A stretch of DNA of 11,280 nt from Planctomycetaceae bacterium (GTDB lineage: Bacteria > Planctomycetota > Phycisphaerae > Phycisphaerales > UBA1924): contig JBDZUZ010000129.1 in assembly GCA_040255445.1 (NCBI GenBank), positions 1 through 11,280 of the forward strand, read 5' to 3'. Within the stretch, counting starts at the first letter, position 1, and every line of letters begins with the position of its first letter. Of the stretch, positions 860 to 11,280 are shown piece after piece. The notes beneath the pieces are model-generated. The model was not told the origin of the DNA and made no database searches. It saw only the letters and a program-made list of their open reading frames with translations. A program made the translations under genes and the position numbers.

Positions 860-1336
860 TCAGCAGCCGGCTGGTGGATATATTTTGACACAAAGGCCGT
901 TCAGCGGCGCGAGCGCGGCGCTTATGAGCGGCTCGACCTCACGCCACGCGAGGCCGCCGTTGCCGCAGCCGAGGGCCGGGATAGCGACCGACCGTAGCCC
1001 AAGCCGCTGGATCTCCCCGGCCATTGCATCAATCGAGGCACCAACGTCATCCAGCCGCGAGGCTTCACGCCAGTGCCGCTTCGTTGGAACGTTGATCACA
1101 ATACAACGCGGCCCATCGTGTGCAACGCGCACAGTCAGCACCTTGCCCGGCTTGAGTTCGCCGCGAGCGCACGCTTTGCGGTAGGCGGCGAAATTGGTCG
1201 GGAACGCCTGCTTGAACTGCAGCGCGAGCCCCTTGCCCATCACGCCCACCGTATTGACGGGGTTTATCAGGCCCTCGGCATCCGAGAGCAGCAGGTCCCC
1301 GGTGGACCGTACAAACTCGGCGCCGCCGTCGCTCAA
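860..1336 (-). CDS. Stand-alone macrodomain protein of the DarG/TARG1 type (ADP-ribose-binding / de-ADP-ribosylating).
   Basis: The translation [56 protein letters not shown]...[19 protein letters not shown]...[25 protein letters not shown] matches, from memory, the conserved blocks of DarG antitoxin and TARG1 macrodomains (GDLL start, NxVNxVGVMGKGxALxFK, KxHWR, PxLGCGxGGLxW). The start is uncertain. TTG at 1336-1334 overlaps the asnS stop (TTGA). The first in-frame ATG at 1480 would overlap asnS by 148 nt and is disfavoured. Confidence 0.78.
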
Positions 1337-2775
1337 AACTCCGCCTGCTTGGGCGCCCGCGGGAACGGGATCACATCGCGGATGTTCTGCATCCCCGTCA
1401 GGAACATCATCGCGCGCTCGAAGCCCAGCCCGAAGCCCGCGTGCGGCACCGTGCCGTAGCGGCGCAGGTCGCGGTACCACCAGTAGTTCTCCTTCGGCAG
1501 CCCCATCTCGTCGATGCGCCGGTCGAGCACATCCAGCCGCTCCTCGCGCTGCGACCCGCCGATGATCTCGCCGATCTTGGGCACCAGCACATCCATCGCC
1601 GCGACCGTGTCGCCGGGCGCGTTGTCCGTGCCCGCATCGTTGAGCCGCATGTAGAACGCCTTGATCTGCTTGGGGTAGTTGATCAGGATCACCGGCTGCT
1701 TGAAGTGCTCTTCGGTGAGATAGCGCTCGTGCTCACTCTGCAGGTCCGTGCCCCACTTGACGGGGAACTCGAACTTCTTCTTGGCGTTCTGCAGGATCGA
1801 GACCGCCTCGGTGTAGGGCAGCCGCCGGAACGGCGTCTCCTGCACATGCTTGAGCCGCTCGATCAGACCGTTCTCGATCCGCTCATCGAAGAACTTCATG
1901 TCGTCGGCCCGCTCGGTGAGCACGGCATCGATCATGAACTTGATGAAGTCCTCGGCGATCTCGCTGTCGCGCATCAGGTCGCAGAAGGCCATCTCCGGCT
2001 CGATCATCCAGAACTCGGCCAGGTGGCGGCTGGTGTTGCTGTTCTCGGCGCGGAAGGTCGGGCCGAAGGTGTACACGTTCGAGAGTGCGCAGCAGTAGGT
2101 CTCGACATTGAGCTGGCCCGACACGGTGAGATGCGACTCCTTGCCGAAGAAGTCTTCCTTGTAGTCGATCGCGCCGGTTGAGTCCTTGGGCCCGCCCGCC
2201 CGCGGCGGGTTCACCGCATCCAGCGTGCTCACGCGGAACATCTGCCCCGCGCCCTCGCAGTCGCTCGCGGTGATGATCGGCGTGTGGACGTAGTAGAAGC
2301 CCCGTTCGTGGAAGAAGCGGTGCACCGCCATCGAGAGGCAATGCCGCACCCGCGCCACCGCGCCGAAGGTGTTGGTGCGGACGCGCAGGTGCGCCTGCTC
2401 GCGCAGGTACTCGAAGGTGTGCCGCTTGTTCTGCACCGGGTATGTATCCGGGCTCTCGACCCAGCCGGTGACCTTGATGCTGCTGCCGCGGACCTCGACC
2501 GCCTGCCCCTTGCCCTGGCTGGCGACGAGTTCGCCCTCGACCTCGACAGCGCAGCCGGTGGTCAGCTTCTTGATCTCTTCAAAGTTGGCGAGCGCGCCGT
2601 CGCCGCCGCCGGGGGCGACGACCTGGATGGGGTCGAAACACGACCCATCCGACACCGCCACGAAGCACAGGCCGCCTTCGGCCTTGCTCTCGCGGTTGGT
2701 GCGGACCCACCCCTTGATCGTGAGCTTCGTCCCGACCGGGGCTTTGAAGGCATCCGCCACGCGCATCCACTGCAT
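1333..2775 (-). CDS. asnS: Asparagine--tRNA ligase (AsnRS).
   Basis: Near-colinear match to E. coli AsnS along its whole length, as recalled: [10 protein letters not shown]...[114 protein letters not shown]. The start is set at ATG 2775 ([10 protein letters not shown]...), preceded by AAGAAGGGA 7 nt upstream. The ORF-track extension to 2913 is rejected. Confidence 0.97.
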
Positions 2776-2950
2776 ACCGCTGTCCCTTCTTTGGAGCCCG
2801 CGGCCGACCCGGCGGCGGGGCCTCCATGGTAGGAATCCCGCCGACACCCCCGATTCCGCCGCACCCGGGCCGCTGGGATGCCGATAATGCAAGCGGACCT
2901 GACCGAATCCCAAGAATGCATCCGGTGGCGCGGGCTATCACCGCGCCCGA

Positions 2951-2958
2951 AAGGGGGA
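2951..2958 (+). promoter_or_regulatory. Shine-Dalgarno sequence for the flotillin gene.
   Basis: AAGGGGGA, 5-nt spacer to ATG 2964. Confidence 0.7.
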
Positions 2959-2963
2959 CCCAC

Positions 2964-4652
2964 ATGGGCATGATGTTCCTGATCGTCGGCGTGGTGCTCG
3001 CGCTCGCCATTCTTGTCAGCGTGCCGCGGATCCCGGGGGCGGCGCTCAAGGGCGCGGCCGCGGCGTTCGCGCTGCTGCTCGTCATCGCCGGGTTGCTGCT
3101 GTCTTCGGCGGTGTATGTGAGCGCCGACCGCGTCGGCATCGTCTCGAAGAACCTCTTTGGCGCCAGCCTCAAGGACGGCAAGATCATCGCCATCGACGGC
3201 GAGATGGGCGTGCAGGCCGATGTGCTCCCGCCCGGGTGGCACTGGGGCTATTGGCCGATCGTGTACAGCGTCGACACCGTTGCGCTGACCGAGGTGCCCT
3301 CGGATCAGGTCGGCCTCATCGAGGCCAAGGACGGCCTGCCCCAGGAGCCGGGCCAGCTCTTCGCGCCCGAGTTCAAGCAGGCCGAGTTCCAGAAGATGCT
3401 CGATGCGCGGTACTTCCTGACCGACGGCCGCGGCCGCAAGGGGCCGCAGTCGTCCGTGCTCACGCCCGGCAAGTACCGGCTCAACACGCAACTGTTCACC
3501 ATCCAGATGGTGCCGCAGACCGAGGTGGCGCAGGGCGAGGTCGCCGTCATCAAGGCGAACTTCGGCGCCGAGCCCTCGATCCAGATCAAGGGCGACGGGG
3601 GCGAGGGCGACATCTTCCTCGCCAAAGAAGGCGAGATGGGCGTCCGCGCCCGGCCCCTCCCGCCCGGCAAGTACCCGCTGAACACAAGGGCCTTCACCAT
3701 CGTCGAGATGTGGACCACGCAGATGATCGCCCATTACGCCGGCGGCACGACCTCCAACCCGACAAGCGGAGCCCCCCAGCGCAGCCGCGGCGGTACGCCC
3801 CGCGGCGGGCCAGAGTCCGAAGAACGCGAGATCACCGTCCGCACCAGCGATGGGTTCACCTTCCCCGTCGATGTGCGGATCGAGTACCTGATCCGCCCAG
3901 AGAACGCCCCCCTCGTCGTCGCGCGTCTCGGCAGCGATGAGGACGAGCGCTTCATGAACGCGCTCAACTCCGCCGTCCGCGCCATCTTCCGGAACAACGC
4001 AGAGGGCGTCCGCGCGCTCGACTACGTTCAGCAGCGGTCGCACCAGGAGTCCCAGTCTCTCGAGATGCTCTCCGATCAGATGGCGCGGTTCGGCGTGACC
4101 ATCACCGCCGTCCGCATCGGCAACGTCGGCGATGAAGCCTCGCTGGGGGCCCTGCTCAAGACCCAGACCGACCGCGAGATCGCCAAGCAGGAACTCATCA
4201 CCTTCCAGGAGCAGCAGAAGGCGGCCGAGCAGAAGAAGGAACTCTCCCGCGCCACCCAGGAGGCCGAGGAAGAGAAGCGGCTGGCGACCGCGGCGTACGC
4301 CGTGAAGATCGCCGAGGAGGAGCAGAAGCGCAAGGTGATCGAGGCGCAGGCCGAGGCAGAGGCGATCGGGATTCGCGCTGAGGCCCAGGCGCTGGCGTAT
4401 CAGCAGATCGCGCTGCAGATCGGCAAGGGCAACGCCGCGCTGGTGGAGCTGCTCAAGATCGTCGGCGAGCGGAACATCCAGATCACGCCGCGGGTGCTGA
4501 TTACCGGCGGGAGTGGTGGGGGTGGCAATGGGAGCGGCAACAGCGGCGAGACCACCGCACTGATCGGCACGATGCTGGACCACATGGTCTCGCGGGAAGA
4601 AGATGCCCCGCAGGCCCGCGGCCGGGTGACGCCGACCTCCGGGGGGAACTGA
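2964..4652 (+). CDS. Flotillin-like SPFH/band-7 membrane protein (YqiK/FloT family).
   Basis: Strong SD AAGGGGGA (2951-2958) 5 nt before ATG 2964. Two N-terminal hydrophobic helices. SPFH-like region. Long charged coiled-coil with EA/KQ repeats (QEAEEEKRLATAAYAVKIAEEEQKRKVIEAQAEAEAIGIRAEAQALAYQQ). Gly-rich tail ITGGSGGGGNGSGNSG, as in YqiK/FloT C-termini. Confidence 0.9.
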   Translation: MGMMFLIVGVVLALAILVSVPRIPGAALKGAAAAFALLLVIAGLLLSSAVYVSADRVGIVSKNLFGASLKDGKIIAIDGEMGVQADVLPPGWHWGYWPIVYSVDTVALTEVPSDQVGLIEAKDGLPQEPGQLFAPEFKQAEFQKMLDARYFLTDGRGRKGPQSSVLTPGKYRLNTQLFTIQMVPQTEVAQGEVAVIKANFGAEPSIQIKGDGGEGDIFLAKEGEMGVRARPLPPGKYPLNTRAFTIVEMWTTQMIAHYAGGTTSNPTSGAPQRSRGGTPRGGPESEEREITVRTSDGFTFPVDVRIEYLIRPENAPLVVARLGSDEDERFMNALNSAVRAIFRNNAEGVRALDYVQQRSHQESQSLEMLSDQMARFGVTITAVRIGNVGDEASLGALLKTQTDREIAKQELITFQEQQKAAEQKKELSRATQEAEEEKRLATAAYAVKIAEEEQKRKVIEAQAEAEAIGIRAEAQALAYQQIALQIGKGNAALVELLKIVGERNIQITPRVLITGGSGGGGNGSGNSGETTALIGTMLDHMVSREEDAPQARGRVTPTSGGN

Positions 4653-4772
4653 ACGGGCGTGGAGTTCGTCCGGTAAGTCCAAACACGAACCCAACAGGTG
4701 TGCGGGCCGTACCTATACTGACGGTGCCGCCAACGCGGGGCGTGTAGTCTGCACAAGGGTCGGAGGACTTCA

Positions 4773-5312
4773 ATGAAAACCAGCACCTCCGCGATGGAAG
4801 TGGTCGAGTACCTCCAATGGCTGGCTTCCAATGAGCTCGCGGACGATGAGAGTTCGCCGCTGACCAACCTGATGGTTCAGAAGCTCCTGTACTTCGTGCA
4901 GGGGTGGAGCCTCGCCGAGACCGGCCAGCCGCTCTTCCGCGAGTCGATCGAAGCGTGGGATTACGGGCCTGTTGTGAAGGATGCGTATCAGGAGCTCAAG
5001 GTCTTTGGCAAGGCCGCGCTCCCGCTGATGCCGCGTCTTCGCACCACACTGACCGAGCACGAACAGGAACTGATCCGCGGCGTGTGGGACCGCTACAAGA
5101 ACTACTCCGCCTACGGCCTCATGCACCTAAGCCATCGCGAGCGTCCTTGGCGCGAGGCCGCGAAGGGCAAGACGATTCCGCACGAGGCCATGAAGCAGAG
5201 CTTCCTCGAGCAGATGCGGCAGGCCGAAGCGCGGCTCGCCGCCGCGTGGGATCGGATCGACAGCGCTGCCCGGACCAACACGCAGCAGATGTTCGGACGC
5301 GAGGCGATCTGA
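4773..5312 (+). CDS. Panacea-domain (DUF4065, SocA/GepA-like) protein, putative antitoxin.
   Basis: SD GGAGGA (4762-4767) 5 nt before ATG 4773. The translation contains VQKLLYFVQGWSLAETGQPLFRESIEAWDYGPVVKDAYQELK, which matches my recollection of the DUF4065/Panacea core (KLQKLLYyaqg...lf.e.ieAw.yGPV...vY). Stop TGA overlaps the ATG of the next ORF (TGATG). Confidence 0.65.
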   Translation: MKTSTSAMEVVEYLQWLASNELADDESSPLTNLMVQKLLYFVQGWSLAETGQPLFRESIEAWDYGPVVKDAYQELKVFGKAALPLMPRLRTTLTEHEQELIRGVWDRYKNYSAYGLMHLSHRERPWREAAKGKTIPHEAMKQSFLEQMRQAEARLAAAWDRIDSAARTNTQQMFGREAI

Positions 5313-5702
5313 TGCAGTTCCGCATCGGGCAGGTCTTCCACCTCAGCGAAGTCCCGCCCCTTGCCGGAGGCGATCCCAAGGACCGGTTCGTCGTGCTCAT
5401 CGGCCCCCCCGGGGCTTGACAAGCGTCCCGGGGCGTTGGTCGTCGTCGCCGCCGTCTCCAGCCGAGCGCCCGATGACTCGACGGATTATGACGCCGTGCC
5501 GATGCCCAACCGTGCGGATTTTCCATCGACGCCGGCTCCTTTCGATCGTCCCTGCTGGTGCTTTCCGCGCTGGGTCTTCCGGATCGATCGCGCCAAGCTC
5601 GGTCCGAGCCGCGGCTACATCTCGGGAGCACGGCTGCAGAGCGTGATCGAGGCGGTGGCGCAGCGTGCCGAGAATGGGCACGGGTTCCCCGGTCTTCTCT
5701 GA
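5312..5702 (+). pseudogene. MazF/PemK/Kid-family toxin gene, disrupted by a +1 frameshift in a C7 homopolymer.
   Basis: Frame 2 (5312-5419) encodes MQFRIGQVFHLSEVPPLAGGDPKDRFVVLIGPPGA*, which aligns with the Kid/PemK N-terminus (GEIWLVSLDPTAGHEQQGTRPVLIVT). Frame 3 (continuing to 5702) encodes ...LVVVAAVSSRAPDD...CWCFPRWVFRIDRAKLGPSRGYISGARLQSVIEAV, which aligns with Kid PVVVPVTSGG...CDQPRTIDMKARGGKRLERVPETIMNEVL. Removing one C from the run at 5404-5410 joins them into a ~129-aa ORF. Confidence 0.6.
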
Positions 5703-5752
5703 CACGCGCCCGCGCCAAGCCCATGCCGCGGCGGATCTCATACCCTCCGCCC

Positions 5753-6211
5753 ATGTCACCCACCGCCGTCGCGTTTCTTGGAATCGGCCTGGCGATGCTC
5801 GCCGGCGTCACCACCGCCATCCAGCCCGCCATCAACGCCCGCTTCGGCTCGCTGATGCCCTCGCGGCTGCACGGCTCGGTCGTCAACTTCGTCACCGGCC
5901 TGGCGGCGATGCTGATCGTCTGCCTGATCGTCCGCACGCCGCTGCCCAAGGCCGAGGCTCTCGCCCGCGCTCCGTGGTGGAGCTGGCTGGGCGGCCTCTG
6001 CGGCGCGTTCTTCGTGACCATGGCGATCATGCTCGTGCCCCGCCTGGGCGCTGCGGCGTACCTCACCGCGATGGTCGCGGGCATGATGATCGGCTCGCTG
6101 GTCATCGATCACTTCGGGATGCTGGGTCTGGATGTCCGCGCTGTGACACCGGGCCGGATCATGGGCATCGTCCTGATCCTGGCGGGCGTGGGCTGCGTGC
6201 GGTTCCTGTGA
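5753..6211 (+). CDS. DMT-superfamily small membrane transporter, YdcZ/DUF606 family.
   Basis: 152 aa with 4-5 hydrophobic helices. WLGGLCGAFFVTMAIMLVPRLGAAAYLTAMVAGMMIGSLVIDHFGMLGL fits the DUF606 pattern (GG..GA..V.....P..G......GQ...S...DHFG..G). The upstream ORF-track extension to 5558 is Arg-rich and is rejected. Confidence 0.82.
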   Translation: MSPTAVAFLGIGLAMLAGVTTAIQPAINARFGSLMPSRLHGSVVNFVTGLAAMLIVCLIVRTPLPKAEALARAPWWSWLGGLCGAFFVTMAIMLVPRLGAAAYLTAMVAGMMIGSLVIDHFGMLGLDVRAVTPGRIMGIVLILAGVGCVRFL

Positions 6212-6315: not shown

Positions 6316-7479
6316 ATGCCTACCGGTCGTCGGTTGCTCCGAGTCGTTGCGTGCTTCGCCATCGTCCTAGGCAATGCGATTGCGCCCGCGCACCAGCCTG
6401 ATCCGACCGCAACGCCCGCCGATGCGGAAGCATCGCGTGTCAAGACCGCCATCGCCCTCCTCGAATCCGCCCACGCTTCAACAGCACCCTTCGAAGTCCG
6501 CATCCGCTACGCCGGCATGATCGGCGGCGGGATCTCCCGAGCCGATGTCGCCCGCATCCCCGGCGCCACCATACTCGAACGCGGCGATCCGCCCGTCGAG
6601 CTCTTCGCCGTGCGCGAGGGTGTGCTCACGTGCGACGGCGCGGACGGCATGCGGCTGGAGAGCCGATACATCGCCGCTCGCGTCGGCAATCCACACACCT
6701 CAGCAGAGGTTTGGACCGCCACGGAGAACGCGGTTGTGCCGACGCTGGAGGCCGAGACCGGTGTGACCGTCCGCGCGGAACTCTACCGCATCAAGCCCAC
6801 CACGCAGGGTGAGCGAGCCGCTGCCTATCAGGGATATCTCTGGACCTACGAACGCCGGCGCGCCGTGACGCATTATCTGCCCATGGCCCGGCACGTCGCC
6901 GTGGTGCTGAGCGAAGACCCCGAGACCCGTGTTCTTGCCGCGACCGATGACGCGATCCACCTCGAATCGCCCGGGGCTGGGATGCAGGCGATTGTTGACC
7001 GCAAGAGCGGCGCCCTTCGCCGCGTTCGCTTCGCGGATATTCGCGGCGGCACCACCGATTACGAGTTCAACGGCGTGATCGATGGCCCCGGCTTCCCGGC
7101 CGCGCACCCCGCCGAGGTTGTGATCCGCTACCCCGGCGGATCGACCGCAGCGGAGCTCTACAGCGACTATCGCGCGATACCCGCGCCCGATCCGGAACAG
7201 TTCACATGGCAGTCGATCGCTTTCACTGCATTCGACCCCCGGAGCGGTGAGCAGTTCTGGGCCGAGAAGAAACCCACGCCGCCCGATGTGATGGTTCTGG
7301 GAACCACATCAACCGCAGCCACAACGCCGGTGCCGCCGGTCCCCTCGCCCAACATCCCCGCCAATCCCACCCCTGGCGGGAGCACCACCGTCCCGCTCTC
7401 GCCGATTCTTCTGCTGCTGGGCCTGATCGCCGCGGCGGCGGTGATAGGAATCATCTCGATCTTCAGGCCGAAGAAATGA
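6316..7479 (+). CDS. Secreted hypothetical protein with a Pro/Thr-rich linker and a conserved C-terminal TM-plus-basic 'sorting-signal-like' module.
   Basis: N-terminal signal peptide MPTGRRLLRVVACFAIVLGNAIA/PA. GC3-biased codons throughout. C-terminus PNIPANPTPGGSTTVPLSPILLLLGLIAAAAVIGIISIFRPKK*, paralogous to the C-terminus of the 9199-9567 gene. Confidence 0.7.
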   Translation: MPTGRRLLRVVACFAIVLGNAIAPAHQPDPTATPADAEASRVKTAIALLESAHASTAPFEVRIRYAGMIGGGISRADVARIPGATILERGDPPVELFAVREGVLTCDGADGMRLESRYIAARVGNPHTSAEVWTATENAVVPTLEAETGVTVRAELYRIKPTTQGERAAAYQGYLWTYERRRAVTHYLPMARHVAVVLSEDPETRVLAATDDAIHLESPGAGMQAIVDRKSGALRRVRFADIRGGTTDYEFNGVIDGPGFPAAHPAEVVIRYPGGSTAAELYSDYRAIPAPDPEQFTWQSIAFTAFDPRSGEQFWAEKKPTPPDVMVLGTTSTAATTPVPPVPSPNIPANPTPGGSTTVPLSPILLLLGLIAAAAVIGIISIFRPKK

Positions 7480-7480
7480 T

Positions 7481-7532
7481 GTGCCATCATGATCGCCTGC
7501 TTTGAGGCGATCGTGATGGGCTCGGCGCCGCA
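7481..7532 (+). repeat. 52-bp GC-rich hairpin repeat, copy 2.
   Basis: GTGCCATCATGATCGCCTGCTTTGAGGCGATCGTGATGGGCTCGGCGCCGCA. The only difference from copy 1 is one base in the loop (C to T). It starts 2 nt after the stop of the 6316-7479 gene and lies between convergent genes. Confidence 0.8.
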
Positions 7533-7631
7533 CAGCAGCAACGCCACATCTCCACTCGACTCGTCTGCACCCTTCCTCGAGATTCACCCAAACCGCACCG
7601 GCCGGCTCTCAGAGCCGTCGCGAGCGTGAAC

Positions 7632-8837
7632 TCAGCACGAGCCTTCCCAGAGGTAGAAGAACCGGTTGATATCGTAACCATCGACCCCGCCGGACTGGTC
7701 AATATCGGCGCATGGAGACCCGCGCTGCCAGTCCTCGAAGAACGCGAAGATATCGTCGCCGTCGACGCCGCCCGAACCATCAAAGTCGCCAGGGCAGGGC
7801 TTGTTGCACGGCCAGTACACGCAGCCTTCGATCTCGAGCGTGTAGGTTGCCTCCAACGCGGCATCGCCCGTCCATCCGGTGACGATGCAGGCGGACCCGG
7901 GGCCATCCGGGCCGCGCTCGATGCCCGAGATGCCGGTCTGCCAGAGGGCTGCCCCTTCACAGCCGAGCGGCACGCGTGGGTGCGTGGTCACAGCGAGCAG
8001 ATAAGTGCTCGCGCCGCCGACCGCGCTGTTGGTCAATCTGGCCGAAACGCCGGCCGGATCGTTCTGAACATTCGCCGCGAGCGCGAGGCCGCGGCCGTCG
8101 TGATCGAGCAGGTACAGCGCGATGTCTCGGTAGGCACAGGTCACCGACGCCGCGAACGCCGCGGGGTTGCTGATGCGGACGGCATAGATATCGACATCGG
8201 TCCCCGCGCGCAGCCGGCCCATGATCGGGAGCGGATAGTCCGGATCACCGCCCGGCCAATCTGCATCTGCCGGCAGGTTGTTCGCGGTCGCATCATGCTC
8301 TTCCCGATCGAAGTACCAGTATTCGCTCTCCCATCTCATGCGACCGTGTTCGATACGCAAGGACGACGTGCTGTTCTCCGTGGCCGTGCTCGACGCGGCG
8401 AAACCGGATGGACCAAAGGTCGCCGGCTCCAGCGCGATCGCCAGGTACGCGATTCCGCAACAGCGCTCACCATCGCGGCCATCGAAGGGGATGGGCCCGG
8501 ACGAAGGGCGGCTCGGCAACGGCACACCGAAGGAGAGCGCTGCGTGTTCCGCCACGCCCTCGCCGTGGTCGCTCGCAATCAACTCGCCCTGGTTGTTGTA
8601 GACTCCGATCGCGATGTCGCCGCCCTCGACGCCGATATCGAGGAAGTTCTCGTAGCTGGCTAAGAACGGTGTGCCGTCGATGCGATACCAACGGACGGCC
8701 GGGCCGGCGAGGCTGAAGGTCCTTGCCTCGACCGTCCCCCGGGCTCTCATATCCAGCCGCTCCGCCATTGGCTGCGCGAGAGAGTGTGCAGAAATCAGCG
8801 TGGTCAGAAGCACACCAATCTGAATCGTTCGATGCAC
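7632..8837 (-). CDS. Secreted protein with C-terminal tandem dockerin-like/EF-hand-like Ca-binding repeats and a Cys-rich region.
   Basis: GTG start at 8837, preceded by GGAGGG with a 6-nt spacer. Signal peptide VHRTIQIGVLLTTLISAHSLA/QP. The C-terminus GDFDGSGGVDGDDIFAFFEDWQ...ADIDQSGGVDGYDINRFFYLWE carries two DxDxSGGVDGxDI..FF repeats. Several Cys residues (CVYWPCNKPCPG). Confidence 0.75.
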   Translation of the reverse strand: MHRTIQIGVLLTTLISAHSLAQPMAERLDMRARGTVEARTFSLAGPAVRWYRIDGTPFLASYENFLDIGVEGGDIAIGVYNNQGELIASDHGEGVAEHAALSFGVPLPSRPSSGPIPFDGRDGERCCGIAYLAIALEPATFGPSGFAASSTATENSTSSLRIEHGRMRWESEYWYFDREEHDATANNLPADADWPGGDPDYPLPIMGRLRAGTDVDIYAVRISNPAAFAASVTCAYRDIALYLLDHDGRGLALAANVQNDPAGVSARLTNSAVGGASTYLLAVTTHPRVPLGCEGAALWQTGISGIERGPDGPGSACIVTGWTGDAALEATYTLEIEGCVYWPCNKPCPGDFDGSGGVDGDDIFAFFEDWQRGSPCADIDQSGGVDGYDINRFFYLWEGSC

Positions 8838-9198
8838 CGTGCACCCTCCAGGCTCGCCCGTTCGCTACAGCGGAGAGGGTCGGACCGCACATTTCCGATC
8901 CGAACCGCGTGTCCGCGCAGCCTACCAGACTTCCCTCAAGTCGCGAGTGAAATTTCAGTCGCGTGCGTGATAACACCGCGGACGACCGTCATCCCGATAG
9001 ACTCCAGGCCGAGGACCAGTGCTCCGATCGCGGCTTCATAACCCCGCTTTCAACCATGCTCCCTTCTCGATGTCCTGTCGCCGCCGCTGCAATCCTCGCG
9101 ACCATCCGCCGAATGAAGTGATGTGCGATCACCATCGCTCGTGTTGGAGCGATCGCGGTAGAGTTGGCCGCCCGAGTGAGGAGTCGTAGGCTATTACC

Positions 9199-9567
9199 AT
9201 GCTTTCAAAGACCACGCTAATCGCGCTCGTACCTCTCTTGACCCTGCTCATCGCGCAGGCATCGCCGGCCGCGCTGCAGACCGAGCAGCCGATGTCGCCG
9301 CCCGCTGCGCAGCCCGGCATCACGGAGGGACAGCCGGCAGACGGTCCAACGCAGCGGCCCGAAGAGGCAGCGCTCGTGCAGCCGCCGGAGCCCGAGGCTG
9401 CAACCACCCCAGCCCCCGGCCGCGCTGTCCCCGCGCCCAACACCCCGGCCAACCCCGCCCCCGGCGGTCAGACCGTCCTGCCCCTTTCGCCCATCCTTCT
9501 GCTCCTGGGCCTGCTCGCCGCGGCGGTCATCATCGGGATCATCTCGATCTTCAGACGCAAGAAATGA
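9199..9567 (+). CDS. Small secreted Pro-rich protein carrying the same C-terminal TM-plus-basic module as the 6316-7479 gene.
   Basis: Signal peptide MLSKTTLIALVPLLTLLIAQA/SP. Pro/Ala/Glu-rich low-complexity middle region. C-terminus PNTPANPAPGGQTVLPLSPILLLLGLLAAAVIIGIISIFRRKK*. About 80% nucleotide identity to 7348-7479 over the last ~130 nt. Confidence 0.65.
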   Translation: MLSKTTLIALVPLLTLLIAQASPAALQTEQPMSPPAAQPGITEGQPADGPTQRPEEAALVQPPEPEAATTPAPGRAVPAPNTPANPAPGGQTVLPLSPILLLLGLLAAAVIIGIISIFRRKK

Positions 9568-9603
9568 TGGGATGCGCGCCCCGGCCACGGCGCAGCGCGT
9601 CCA

Positions 9604-9837
9604 TCAGGTACGCTGCTCCGCCCCCTCCCCATACTCAAACACCTCCTCCACATCCCGTCCGAACACCCGCGCGATTGCGAACGCCAGCTCCAGCGACGGT
9701 GCGTACTTCCCGCCCTCGATCGCGTTGATCGTCTGCCGCGTGACGCCGGTGCGATCGGCGAGCGCCTGCTGCGTCATCTCGCCGTGCATGAAGCGCAGCT
9801 CGCGGATGCGGTTGGTGATGCGTGGCTTGTCCGCCAT
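9604..9837 (-). CDS. XRE-family HTH transcriptional regulator (YozG/HTH_26-like, 77 aa).
   Basis: MADKPRITNRIRELRFMHGEMTQQALADRTGVTRQTINAIEGGKYAPSLELAFAIARVFGRDVEEVFEYGE fits the Cro/C1 HTH pattern (GvsrqtIs.iE.GKy.PSL.LaF.iA..f). The ATG at 9837-9835 overlaps the stop of the upstream membrane-protein gene, and GGGAGGG lies 5 nt upstream. The ORF-track N-terminal extension to 9999 is rejected. Confidence 0.85.
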   Translation of the reverse strand: MADKPRITNRIRELRFMHGEMTQQALADRTGVTRQTINAIEGGKYAPSLELAFAIARVFGRDVEEVFEYGEGAEQRT

Positions 9838-10346
9838 CACATCCCTCCCATCCCGCGCCGGTAGTACACGATCTGCAGCGTGTACTTGAGGACCTCCGAC
9901 ACGAACATCGACCCCAGCAGCAGGTGCGCCACCCACACCGGCGCTGCGCCGACGACCATCGCGCTGATCCCGCAGATCACGCCAGCGCCCACGATCCACG
10001 CCGCGTTGCTCTCCGCCCGCCAGCCGATCAGCCGGTCGCGCTCATCGCGATGATCGGGCGATCGCGCGCTGCCGGCCCCGCCGCCGAGCCGCTCACCGAT
10101 GAGCGCGGCGAGGTGCCCGACCACCAGCACGACGACCATCAGCACCACCGCCGCGGCGAACAGCGGCACATACGCCGGCAGCGCCATCACCCCGTTGGCC
10201 ATCATGGCCCCCGCCACGGCGAAGTACCCGCCCAGGACGACCACCATGGAAATCAGCTGCACCCAGACGCTCTTCTCGCTGTACGACCCCACCGGACCCT
10301 CCCTTCCAAGCCGCTCGGGCCCGTGCAGGTCGCATCGAGCCGACAT
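9837..10346 (-). CDS. Small integral membrane protein (about 4 TM), translationally coupled upstream of the XRE regulator (DUF2178-like arrangement).
   Basis: Four hydrophobic segments (VWVQLISMVVVLGGYFAVAGAMM, ALPAYVPLFAAAVVLMVVVLVVGHLAALI, AAWIVGAGVICGISAMVVGAAPVWVAHLLLGSMF). Ends ...RRGMGGM* with ATGTGATG overlap onto the regulator start. Start ATG 10346 is chosen because a sigma70-like promoter sits immediately upstream. An alternative GTG start ~70 nt downstream has a GGAAGGGAGGG SD. Confidence 0.65.
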   Translation of the reverse strand: MSARCDLHGPERLGREGPVGSYSEKSVWVQLISMVVVLGGYFAVAGAMMANGVMALPAYVPLFAAAVVLMVVVLVVGHLAALIGERLGGGAGSARSPDHRDERDRLIGWRAESNAAWIVGAGVICGISAMVVGAAPVWVAHLLLGSMFVSEVLKYTLQIVYYRRGMGGM

Positions 10347-10353
10347 GATGTCA

Positions 10354-10382
10354 AAAATACGCGACGCTGGGAGTTGTGTCAA
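10354..10382 (-). promoter_or_regulatory. Putative sigma70-type promoter (TTGACA-17 nt-TATTTT) for the membrane-protein/XRE operon, giving a near-leaderless transcript.
   Basis: On the minus strand the -35 TTGACA is at 10382-10377 and the -10 TATTTT at 10359-10354. The spacer is exactly 17 nt and the ATG at 10346 is 7 nt downstream of the -10. Confidence 0.4.
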
Positions 10383-10453
10383 GTAAAGCAGACACAGAAT
10401 CGGCGTGTCCACAGGGACCACCCGCCCCGCGGCCCTCGAATAGGCTGGCCACG

Positions 10454-11280
10454 ATGCTAATCCGCCTGATCGCGATCGCCGTCCTGCTCGGTCCGGCTGT
10501 CCTGCTCGGCCCCGCCGCGATCTCTGCCGCCGCGGCGGCCGCGGCACCCGCGCCTACCGCCGCGCCCGCGGCCGTGTCGCCGCCGGTCATCCTCGTCACC
10601 CGCGCTGCATCGCTCTCATCGGACCGCCCGCCTGCGACGCCGATGCTCCGCCGCCTCGCCGGGGAGATCGATGCCGCGGAAGGGCCGCGGTTCGCCGCGC
10701 TCCAGTCCGTCCTGCGAGCGCCGCCGCTCCGCGCAGTGCCCGATCCCGCGCCGGTGACCTTCCTCACGCTGCACATCTTCAGCGCAGCGCCGGCGCGCAC
10801 CATCACACTCGCGCGCGATCACGCCGGCGCCGTCTTCGCGATGCAGACAAACGCCCGCGGCGACATCACCTGGTCGCGCCTCGACCCCGACCGATTCCGC
10901 AACGCCGGCTTCGGCTGGATCGATACGCCCGATGCATCCGACACGCCGGGCGCATCGCAGGATGCACCACCGTCGCCTGATGCGCCGCAATCTCCGGCCA
11001 CATCGCCCGCGAAACAGCCCGCCTCCGGCGAAGTCGCGTTGCTCCCACCGCCGTACACACCGGCCACCATCACACTCACCCCGCGCGAAGTCTCCCGCCG
11101 CATGCCCGGCCGGAATGGCCTTCGGTTCGGCGACCTCGCACGCGACATCACCAGCGAGTCTTTCCAACTCCGCCTTCCCAAGAGCCACAACCCCGCCGCC
11201 GCGGCGGGCCTGCTCGTGTGGATCAGCCCGATGGCCAGCGGCGCTCCGCCGCGTTCGCTGTGGGACGCGGCCGACGAGCT
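10454..11280 (+). CDS. Secreted hypothetical protein, 3'-partial (runs off the window end).
   Basis: ATG 10454, open to the window end with no stop. Strong GC3 bias. Signal-peptide-like N-terminus MLIRLIAIAVLLGPAVLLGPAAISAAAAAAA. Ala/Pro-rich. The stretch FQLRLPKSHNPAAAAGLLVWISPMASG loosely resembles the Y.LYLPkgYdp..kyPLvlfLHG lead-in of esterase/peptidase-like alpha/beta hydrolases, but without the HG. Confidence 0.55.
   Translation, partial: MLIRLIAIAVLLGPAVLLGPAAISAAAAAAAPAPTAAPAAVSPPVILVTRAASLSSDRPPATPMLRRLAGEIDAAEGPRFAALQSVLRAPPLRAVPDPAPVTFLTLHIFSAAPARTITLARDHAGAVFAMQTNARGDITWSRLDPDRFRNAGFGWIDTPDASDTPGASQDAPPSPDAPQSPATSPAKQPASGEVALLPPPYTPATITLTPREVSRRMPGRNGLRFGDLARDITSESFQLRLPKSHNPAAAAGLLVWISPMASGAPPRSLWDAADE

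Follow-up and report, generated by a model that had tools for sequence, protein, structure and literature searches.

The DNA analysed here, referred to below as the window, is a complete contig of 11,280 nt from an NCBI metagenome-assembled genome. It contains a two-gene locus whose members we identify with high confidence as genes of a Panacea antitoxin (panA) and of a MazF/PemK-like toxin, the reading frame of the second being broken at a run of seven cytosines. The genes and sequence features of the locus and its surroundings are as follows.

860–1480, minus strand: Macro-domain gene
1333–2775, minus strand: asnS
2964–4652, plus strand: Band_7/flotillin gene (562 aa)
4762–4767, plus strand: Shine–Dalgarno-like GGAGGA, read from the sequence, 5 nt before the panA ATG
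4773–5312, plus strand: panA, 179 aa, with a PF13274 match; Panacea core at about residues 1–128, long C-terminal helix at residues 137–174
5301–5304, plus strand: GAGG motif, read from the sequence, 7 nt before the toxin ATG
5310–5314, plus strand: TGATG stop/start overlap, the panA TGA (5310–5312) and the toxin ATG (5312–5314) sharing one base
5312–5419, plus strand: 5' part of the toxin gene, 35 codons, predicted strands beta1–beta2 with Arg25; premature TGA at 5417–5419
5404–5410, plus strand: C7 homopolymer, site of the +1-nt frameshift; C6 would restore the frame
5415–5702, plus strand: 3' part of the toxin gene in the +1 frame, 95 codons, predicted beta3 to C-terminal helix, with Ser49 and the CW..PRW motif; TGA at 5700–5702
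5744–6211, plus strand: YdcZ gene

The neighbourhood of asnS, flotillin and ydcZ genes named in a preliminary description of this DNA is present at the positions listed. Its characterization of the genome as planctomycete-like agrees with the AsnS protein, whose best named matches belong to Planctomycetota/Phycisphaerales at approximately 82% identity, and we accordingly consider the host to be Planctomycetota/Phycisphaerae-like. Three relatives (AsnS 82%, flotillin 61% identity) retain the divergent asnS–flotillin pair, and none of the three has PanA, a MazF-like gene or YdcZ within 7 kb. The module therefore lies in a variable, accessory region, and the locus marks such a spot downstream of a conserved gene pair. 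An island of foreign GC content was considered and rejected, as GC amounts to 63% in panA, 67% in the toxin gene and 66.6% in the window.

No sigma-70-like promoter was found between positions 4500 and 5900, and scans of the locus for promoters and terminators, Rfam families, tRNAs and inverted repeats yielded no Rfam family, tRNA or convincing operator. Two further ORFs, a long antisense one at 5119–6105 (minus strand) and one at 4904–5419 (plus strand), were rejected as genes; both are overlapping high-GC artefacts without family support, and GC3 follows the panA and toxin frames.

The Panacea gene and its broken neighbour

The preliminary description had recognized a Panacea/DUF4065 core in the ORF at 4773–5312, and profile searches bear this out. 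The 179-aa product contains the quoted core (KLLYFVQGW...IEAWDYGPVV) and matches the Pfam family SocA_Panacea (PF13274) with E = 1e-21 and 78.4 bits (cutoff 25.7), residues 35–126 of the protein covering profile positions 1–112 of 113. The best NCBIfam match is SocA_antitoxin (NF047745) at 71.9 bits, which does not reach the equivalog cutoff of 190 bits. Because this match is partial, extending over the shared Panacea core only, as well as below the cutoff, we regard the panA product as a Panacea protein and not as SocA itself. PF13274 is found in all 18 PanA homologues, which are 28–42% identical to the window protein and share with it an invariant QKLLY..W..GPV core. A scan of genome contigs with PanA returned no relative above 43% identity, and the exact protein is recorded in both NCBI and Logan.

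The AlphaFold (AF2) model of PanA, built with the 18 homologues, has a pLDDT of 95.1. Residues 1–128 form a helical core that includes a small beta-hairpin, and one long helix (137–174), which lies outside the Pfam domain, follows. Comparison of the model with the PDB by Foldseek gave no confident match, the best being with one chain of the DarTG complex from M. tuberculosis (E = 0.025, TM 0.37). The length of the C-terminal helix and its sequence pattern (...R.N....G...) are common to the window PanA, P0002, P0003 and P0006, and three of these four proteins (the window PanA, P0003 and P0006) are linked to the same subfamily of MazF-like toxins as in the window. By a speculative analogy with Phd-C or PAD1, this helix may be a MazF-specific neutralizing element.

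The overlap of the panA stop codon with the start of the next gene in TGATG is located where it had been reported, and is consistent with translational coupling of the two genes. The frame opened by this ATG reads MQFRIGQVFHLSEVPPLAGGDPKDRFVVLIGPPGA and ends at the TGA at 5417–5419. The +1 frame, which is already open ahead of the junction, reads LDKRPGALVVVAAVSS...RIDRAKLGPSRGYISGARLQSVIEAV... until the TGA at 5700–5702, with PCWCFPRWVFRIDRAKLGPSRGYISGARLQSVIEAV also contained in it after LDKRPGALVVVAAVSS. GC3 periodicity tracks the panA frame, then the 5' frame of the toxin gene and then the +1 frame, the switch falling at the junction. Removal of one C from the C7 run, the repair proposed in the preliminary description, gives a 129-aa protein reading ...LIGPPGLDKRP..., and the GPPGLDK junction so restored aligns without gaps to intact relatives, among them P0029 (...LIVPPGVDD...). 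The C7 tract is the longest homopolymer of the whole window, and errors concentrate in such tracts. In the annotation of the corresponding Logan contig the 5' part is called as a 35-aa gene, and the protein P0025 is the identical 35-aa product. Positions 5312–5702 are better annotated as a frameshifted PemK/MazF-family pseudogene than as a 35-aa hypothetical protein followed by an unannotated remnant.

Compared on its own with PemK_toxin (PF02452), the repaired protein scores 18.1 bits (gathering score 23.1; E = 0.003), in a weak match that covers profile positions 12–107 of 109 and runs across the frameshift. When the repaired toxin was searched against a word index, no homologues came up, and an exhaustive search was therefore needed. 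This search, performed with HMMER against 1.84 billion representatives, yielded 86 relatives with an E-value of no more than 1e-3, 19 of them reaching 1e-10 or better; most are 120–140 aa long and align to approximately residues 3–120 of the query, again across the frameshift. The family alignment comprises 62 sequences, namely the repaired window protein and 61 relatives. PF02452 is matched by 50 of the 62, the repaired protein being counted among the 62, with a best E-value of 1.2e-15. The family profile matches chains of MazF6, MazF9, S. aureus MazF, EndoA and PemK in the PDB over their full length (E = 1e-12 to 1e-8, the best MazF match having E = 1.2e-12), and hhalign aligns the window toxin with B. 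subtilis EndoA (a sequence identical to 4me7_A) at 95.3% probability.

Structure prediction points in the same direction as the profiles. The AF2 model of the repaired toxin (pLDDT 92.6, pTM 0.86) has six strands and a helix at residues 105–120, that is, the SH3-like beta-barrel of the MazF/CcdB fold with a C-terminal helix. The top 50 Foldseek matches are all MazF/PemK structures (TM 0.65–0.82), headed by S. aureus MazF, EndoA, MoxT and MazF-mt with probability 1.00; on MazF/EndoA the model superposes with TM 0.7–0.8. The assignment of the repaired ORF to the MazF/PemK fold, already made in the preliminary description, is thus upheld by family, profile and model comparisons alike.

In the hhalign alignment, Arg25 and Ser49 of the window toxin correspond to Arg25 and Thr48 of EndoA. 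R25 and T48 form the catalytic pair of B. subtilis MazF (R29 and T52 in E. coli), and their mutation abolishes activity (PMC7354611); M. tuberculosis MazF7 naturally carries Ser in place of Thr at the second of these positions (PMC7354611). The two columns contain Arg in 52 and Ser or Thr in 61 of the 62 family sequences, and the near-invariant residues G6, W87 and G101 are all kept in the window toxin.

To score the two halves we used a profile of the 61 intact relatives, with the window sequence left out. The 5' stub reaches 38.3 bits and the 3' part 81.3 bits, compared with 126.4 bits for the joined, repaired protein, in line with the earlier proposal that the two frame-shifted halves make up one Kid/PemK/MazF-like toxin. 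Intact toxin homologues linked to Panacea reach 121.8 and 104.9 bits on the same profile. The ORF for the whole MazF/PemK domain is interrupted in the window, with the break at C7 and a stop after 35 codons. Judged by these comparisons, the downstream gene is a predicted MazF/PemK-family toxin gene that shows no decay beyond a single extra base. The PADLOC models gave no match for either the panA product or the repaired toxin.

Panacea–toxin pairs in other loci

The toxin subfamily to which the window gene belongs has the consensus ...G.IYW...CPPLDG...K.RPV.V...VVA.S/T...CWA.PRW.... On four metagenomic contigs (L003–L006) a member of this subfamily lies directly 3' of a Panacea gene whose product is 38% identical to PanA, with a stop-to-start gap of 14 nt, and at a further locus (L074) a member is arranged head-to-head (divergently) with a 41%-identical Panacea gene. 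These contigs represent two other metagenomic lineages that combine Panacea with the same toxin subfamily. In the genome and metagenome collections, a PemK-like ORF was found directly downstream and on the same strand in 9 of 138 other Panacea loci; four of these nine ORFs were compared with Pfam, and all four exceeded the gathering score. Among the 58 + 80 scanned Panacea loci none contained the exact window subfamily at strong E-values, and the partners found there were more distant PemK-like proteins only. No close orthologue emerged when metagenomes were scanned with the repaired toxin as the single query, and there is hence no intact, near-identical copy for comparison.

Neither partner is restricted to the other. 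A HEPN protein, recognized by a weak Pfam match, is the partner of Panacea at L008–L011, and close Panacea relatives at L012 and L002 are paired with small proteins without a Pfam match. The closest relatives of the toxin (P0020 and P0022) follow a different small protein and not Panacea, which indicates that the toxin subfamily is not dedicated to PanA. This variety of partners, on the side of Panacea as well as of the toxin relatives, corresponds to the partner swapping that has been described for Panacea.

The window locus has the two-gene layout of a Panacea toxin–antitoxin pair, in that the genes overlap by one base and the pairing recurs in L003–L006, in L074 and in the 9 of 138 loci. 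From gene arrangement and sequence, the one-base overlap and the recurrence in other lineages argue for panA and the MazF-like gene being a cognate pair.

The frameshift and the proposed working of the module

An independent Logan assembly of run SRR28167102 contains a contig of 3,824 nt (L001) that is identical to window positions 2044–5867, and the C7 tract and the frame break are the same in this contig and in the NCBI contig. The two assemblies were probably built from the same reads, and shared reads make their agreement compatible with a systematic homopolymer error. Four other 6-nt runs in the window (three C6 and one G6) leave their ORFs unbroken, and the C6 and G6 runs within the 562-aa flotillin gene are not disruptive. 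We think it probable that the C7 frameshift is a real mutation that reflects recent inactivation, rather than an assembly error. The toxin as assembled is non-functional, because only the 35-aa stub can be made.

The frameshift coincides with the window's longest homopolymer, the repaired toxin shows no decay (126.4 bits, with R25, S49, G6, W87 and G101 all kept), and all examined Panacea-linked toxin homologues are intact. Each of these observations would also fit a module that is intact in the organism, where the seventh C would have arisen as an error of sequencing or assembly or would represent a minority allele, and the full 129-aa toxin would form a functional pair with PanA. However, two different assemblers produced an identical C7 tract, the identity of the 3.8-kb Logan contig with the MAG contig would argue for accurate reads, and the four other 6-nt C/G runs of the window are not accompanied by ORF breaks. 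We consider an intact module rather unlikely, though a serious alternative to inactivation.

A different scenario views the C7 tract as a regulatory device that tunes toxin dosage, either by reversible C6/C7 phase variation through slipped-strand mispairing or by low-level +1 ribosomal frameshifting. In the latter version tRNA-Pro would slip in the P site on CCC CCC G and only a mere trickle of full-length toxin would be made; slippage into the +1 frame is known for CCC-C contexts. Slipping by +1 here would give precisely the GPPGLDK join that resembles the family, and the downstream toxin frame is perfectly preserved. Such a switch would be an unusual form of control of a toxin in a toxin–antitoxin system if it were true, but it is highly improbable in either version: none of the homologues with available DNA is frameshifted or carries at least 6 identical nucleotides in a row at the C7 position, no stimulatory element (internal Shine–Dalgarno sequence or hungry codon) is evident at the site, Rfam found nothing at the locus, and a simple mutation accounts for the data just as well.

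Equally little credence attaches to the notion that the Panacea protein is a SocA-like type VI proteolytic adaptor, a free-standing sensor or a phage-associated protein to whose function the MazF-like remnant is unrelated, since the features that suggest it (SocA_antitoxin as the best NCBIfam match, the JGI label "uncharacterized phage-associated protein" on PanA homologues, and the sensory role for Panacea proposed in the NetFlax paper, PMC10440598) are set against a SocA match of 71.9 bits that falls short of 190 and covers the shared core only, a locus with no SocB-like partner, and a start/stop overlap with a toxin-family gene in a pairing that recurs in other lineages.

On balance, we favour the interpretation of the locus as a type II toxin–antitoxin operon of the PanA–MazF-like kind, most likely disarmed recently by a change from C6 to C7 that left an orphan antitoxin. 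The operon would be a chromosomal PanA–PanT operon of type II in a Phycisphaerae-like planctomycete. Its first gene, panA (4773–5312), would encode an antitoxin made up of a stand-alone Panacea domain and a long C-terminal helix, and the second, coupled to it through TGATG, an endoribonuclease toxin of the MazF/PemK family. As judged from other members of the family, the intact toxin would act as a dimer that cleaves RNA by means of Arg25 and Ser49 and thereby blocks translation, and PanA would bind the toxin directly and restrain it for as long as PanA is neither lost nor triggered. It is possible to imagine, by a speculative analogy with the C-termini of MazE, that the C-terminal helix of PanA occupies the RNA groove of MazF. 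In the present genome, with its one extra C, the product would be a 35-aa stub that includes Arg25 and lacks the rest of the fold. As this stub is all that the broken frame provides, the module is most likely a pair that was disarmed not long ago and whose antitoxin is now an orphan, and it would illustrate a common fate of chromosomal toxin–antitoxin loci, in which the toxin is disabled first and the orphan antitoxin stays.

The point of interest in such a module is the way in which a MazF dimer is neutralized by a Panacea protein that stands alone and carries one long C-terminal helix. According to the NetFlax paper (PMC10440598), stand-alone Panacea can neutralize directly, and appended elements such as Phd-C, PAD1 and ZBD neutralize "linearly". 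The searched parts of the two Panacea papers (PMC8832971 and PMC10440598) cite no structural model of a stand-alone Panacea protein neutralizing a MazF dimer.

Comparison with known toxin–antitoxin systems

The SocAB system of Caulobacter (a type VI system) shares the Panacea domain PF13274 with the window PanA. The window partner, in contrast, is a MazF-like RNase and not the DnaN-binding SocB, and neither the SocAB gene order nor its ClpXP-adaptor mechanism is implied here. With a score below the equivalog cutoff of NF047745 and a MazF-like partner in place of SocB, the window protein falls outside the SocA family proper.

Canonical MazEF, PemIK and Kid–Kis systems (B. subtilis EndoA–EndoAI, E. 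coli MazEF and M. tuberculosis MazEF-mt) have the same toxin fold as predicted for the window and the same catalytic Arg and Thr/Ser, which are likewise predicted there. They also resemble it in being antitoxin-first bicistrons with overlapping genes. The difference lies in the antitoxin, which in the window is a globular Panacea protein without a recognizable DNA-binding module, whereas canonical MazE-type antitoxins bind DNA through AbrB/SpoVT or RHH domains.

The closest counterparts are the PanA–PanT pairs reported by Kurata et al. (2022, PNAS, PMC8832971) in a survey of DUF4065/Panacea gene neighbourhoods, where PemK is listed among the partner toxin domains. Two PanA-neutralized toxins that HHpred relates to EndoA/PemK/MazF, one from Pseudomonas moraviensis and one from Bifidobacterium ruminantium, were validated in that work, and both of these MazF-like PanTs inhibit protein synthesis (PMC8832971). 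Dataset S1 of the survey gives the P. moraviensis pair the order A|T with a spacing of −1, places the toxin cluster T5 at 99.5% HHpred probability to EndoA/MazF6, and includes PanA loci in Phycisphaerae; toxin-first is the less common order in the set described there. As in the window, the antitoxin of these pairs (toxin clusters T5/T6) is a stand-alone "noNTD" Panacea protein encoded first, and a small MazF-fold toxin gene lies directly 3' of it (PMC8832971); in P. moraviensis the spacing of −1 is identical to that of the TGATG overlap (PMC8832971).

The window locus differs from the published PanA–PanT pairs in that its toxin gene is frameshifted and its host is a Phycisphaerae-like MAG. Its toxin subfamily is also distinguished by the CPPLDG and CWAxPRW motifs, and many of its members reach the Pfam PemK family, whereas the validated PanTs are reported to be without a CDD match (PMC8832971). 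The antitoxin-first Panacea–MazF pairing named in the preliminary description is not a novelty, as such pairs have been catalogued and experimentally validated in the work of Kurata et al. (PMC8832971). Since that catalogue and its validated pairs already include antitoxin-first Panacea–MazF loci with a −1 overlap, the architecture of the window locus is a known one and only this member is new, adding one more planctomycete example to an already large catalogue of Panacea–toxin pairings.

Gene order at the site of the toxin–antitoxin module

The divergent asnS–flotillin pair is kept in relatives (loci L155–L157), and the gene that comes after flotillin varies among them:

L155: flgH and a flagellar rod cluster
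L156: small unknown ORFs, then his genes

The site that holds the TA module and ydcZ in the window is thereby marked as a synteny breakpoint. One further element lies directly 3' of the flotillin gene, roughly 80 nt before panA:

4659–4695: imperfect inverted repeat, 11 nt, 82% complementary, with a 15-nt spacer

The repeat could form the hairpin of a weak terminator or serve as an operator; taken alone, it is not above chance expectation.

Flanking genes

A Macro-domain ORF is found immediately downstream of asnS:

860–1480 (−): Macro-domain ORF (PF01661, E = 2.5e-18)

Its longest form overlaps the 3' end of asnS by about 150 nt, and the true start of the gene is therefore probably internal to this ORF. 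A Macro-domain gene (2140–2595, weak Pfam match on record) also adjoins the Panacea pair of L012. In a Foldseek search of the PDB, the DarTG complex 7yk3 contributed the only chain at all similar to the PanA model (E = 0.025, TM 0.37).

On the other side of the module, several long ORFs 3' of ydcZ (6316–10547) have no Pfam match:

6316–7479 (+): long ORF
7632–8837 (−) and 7626–8663 (+): overlapping ORFs, either strand being a candidate for coding
9822–10547: long ORF

A membrane anchor is suggested for the product of 6316–7479, whose C-terminal end is a Pro/Thr-rich stretch and then a hydrophobic tail (LLLLGLIAAAAVIGIISIF).

Partners of Panacea and toxin relatives

Close relatives of the window Panacea protein (35–41% identity) precede partners other than MazF at several loci:

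L008–L011 (e.g., L008 1744–2514 and 2507–2920): 137 aa, weak HEPN Pfam match on record, overlapping the Panacea stop
L012, 1668–1958: 96 aa, no Pfam match
L002, 2577–2858: 93 aa, no Pfam match

These differing partners illustrate partner swapping inside a single Panacea subclade. Panacea is not the partner of the window toxin's two nearest intact relatives (L013–L015), whose genes come after one for a small protein, about 80 aa long (e.g., L015 1269–1529 and 757–1272). The small proteins have no Pfam match and share a conserved C-terminal motif (...RFQAWFDANRDAL... / ...LKHWFKENHGEIL...), and they may constitute an undescribed antitoxin family for the window MazF subfamily. L015 additionally encodes a DUF6941 protein.

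In L074, a gene of the window toxin's subfamily (174–599, −) and a 41%-identical Panacea gene (644–1204, +) lie head-to-head with 44 nt between them. The pair is divergent rather than an operon, a layout that is unusual for TA genes.
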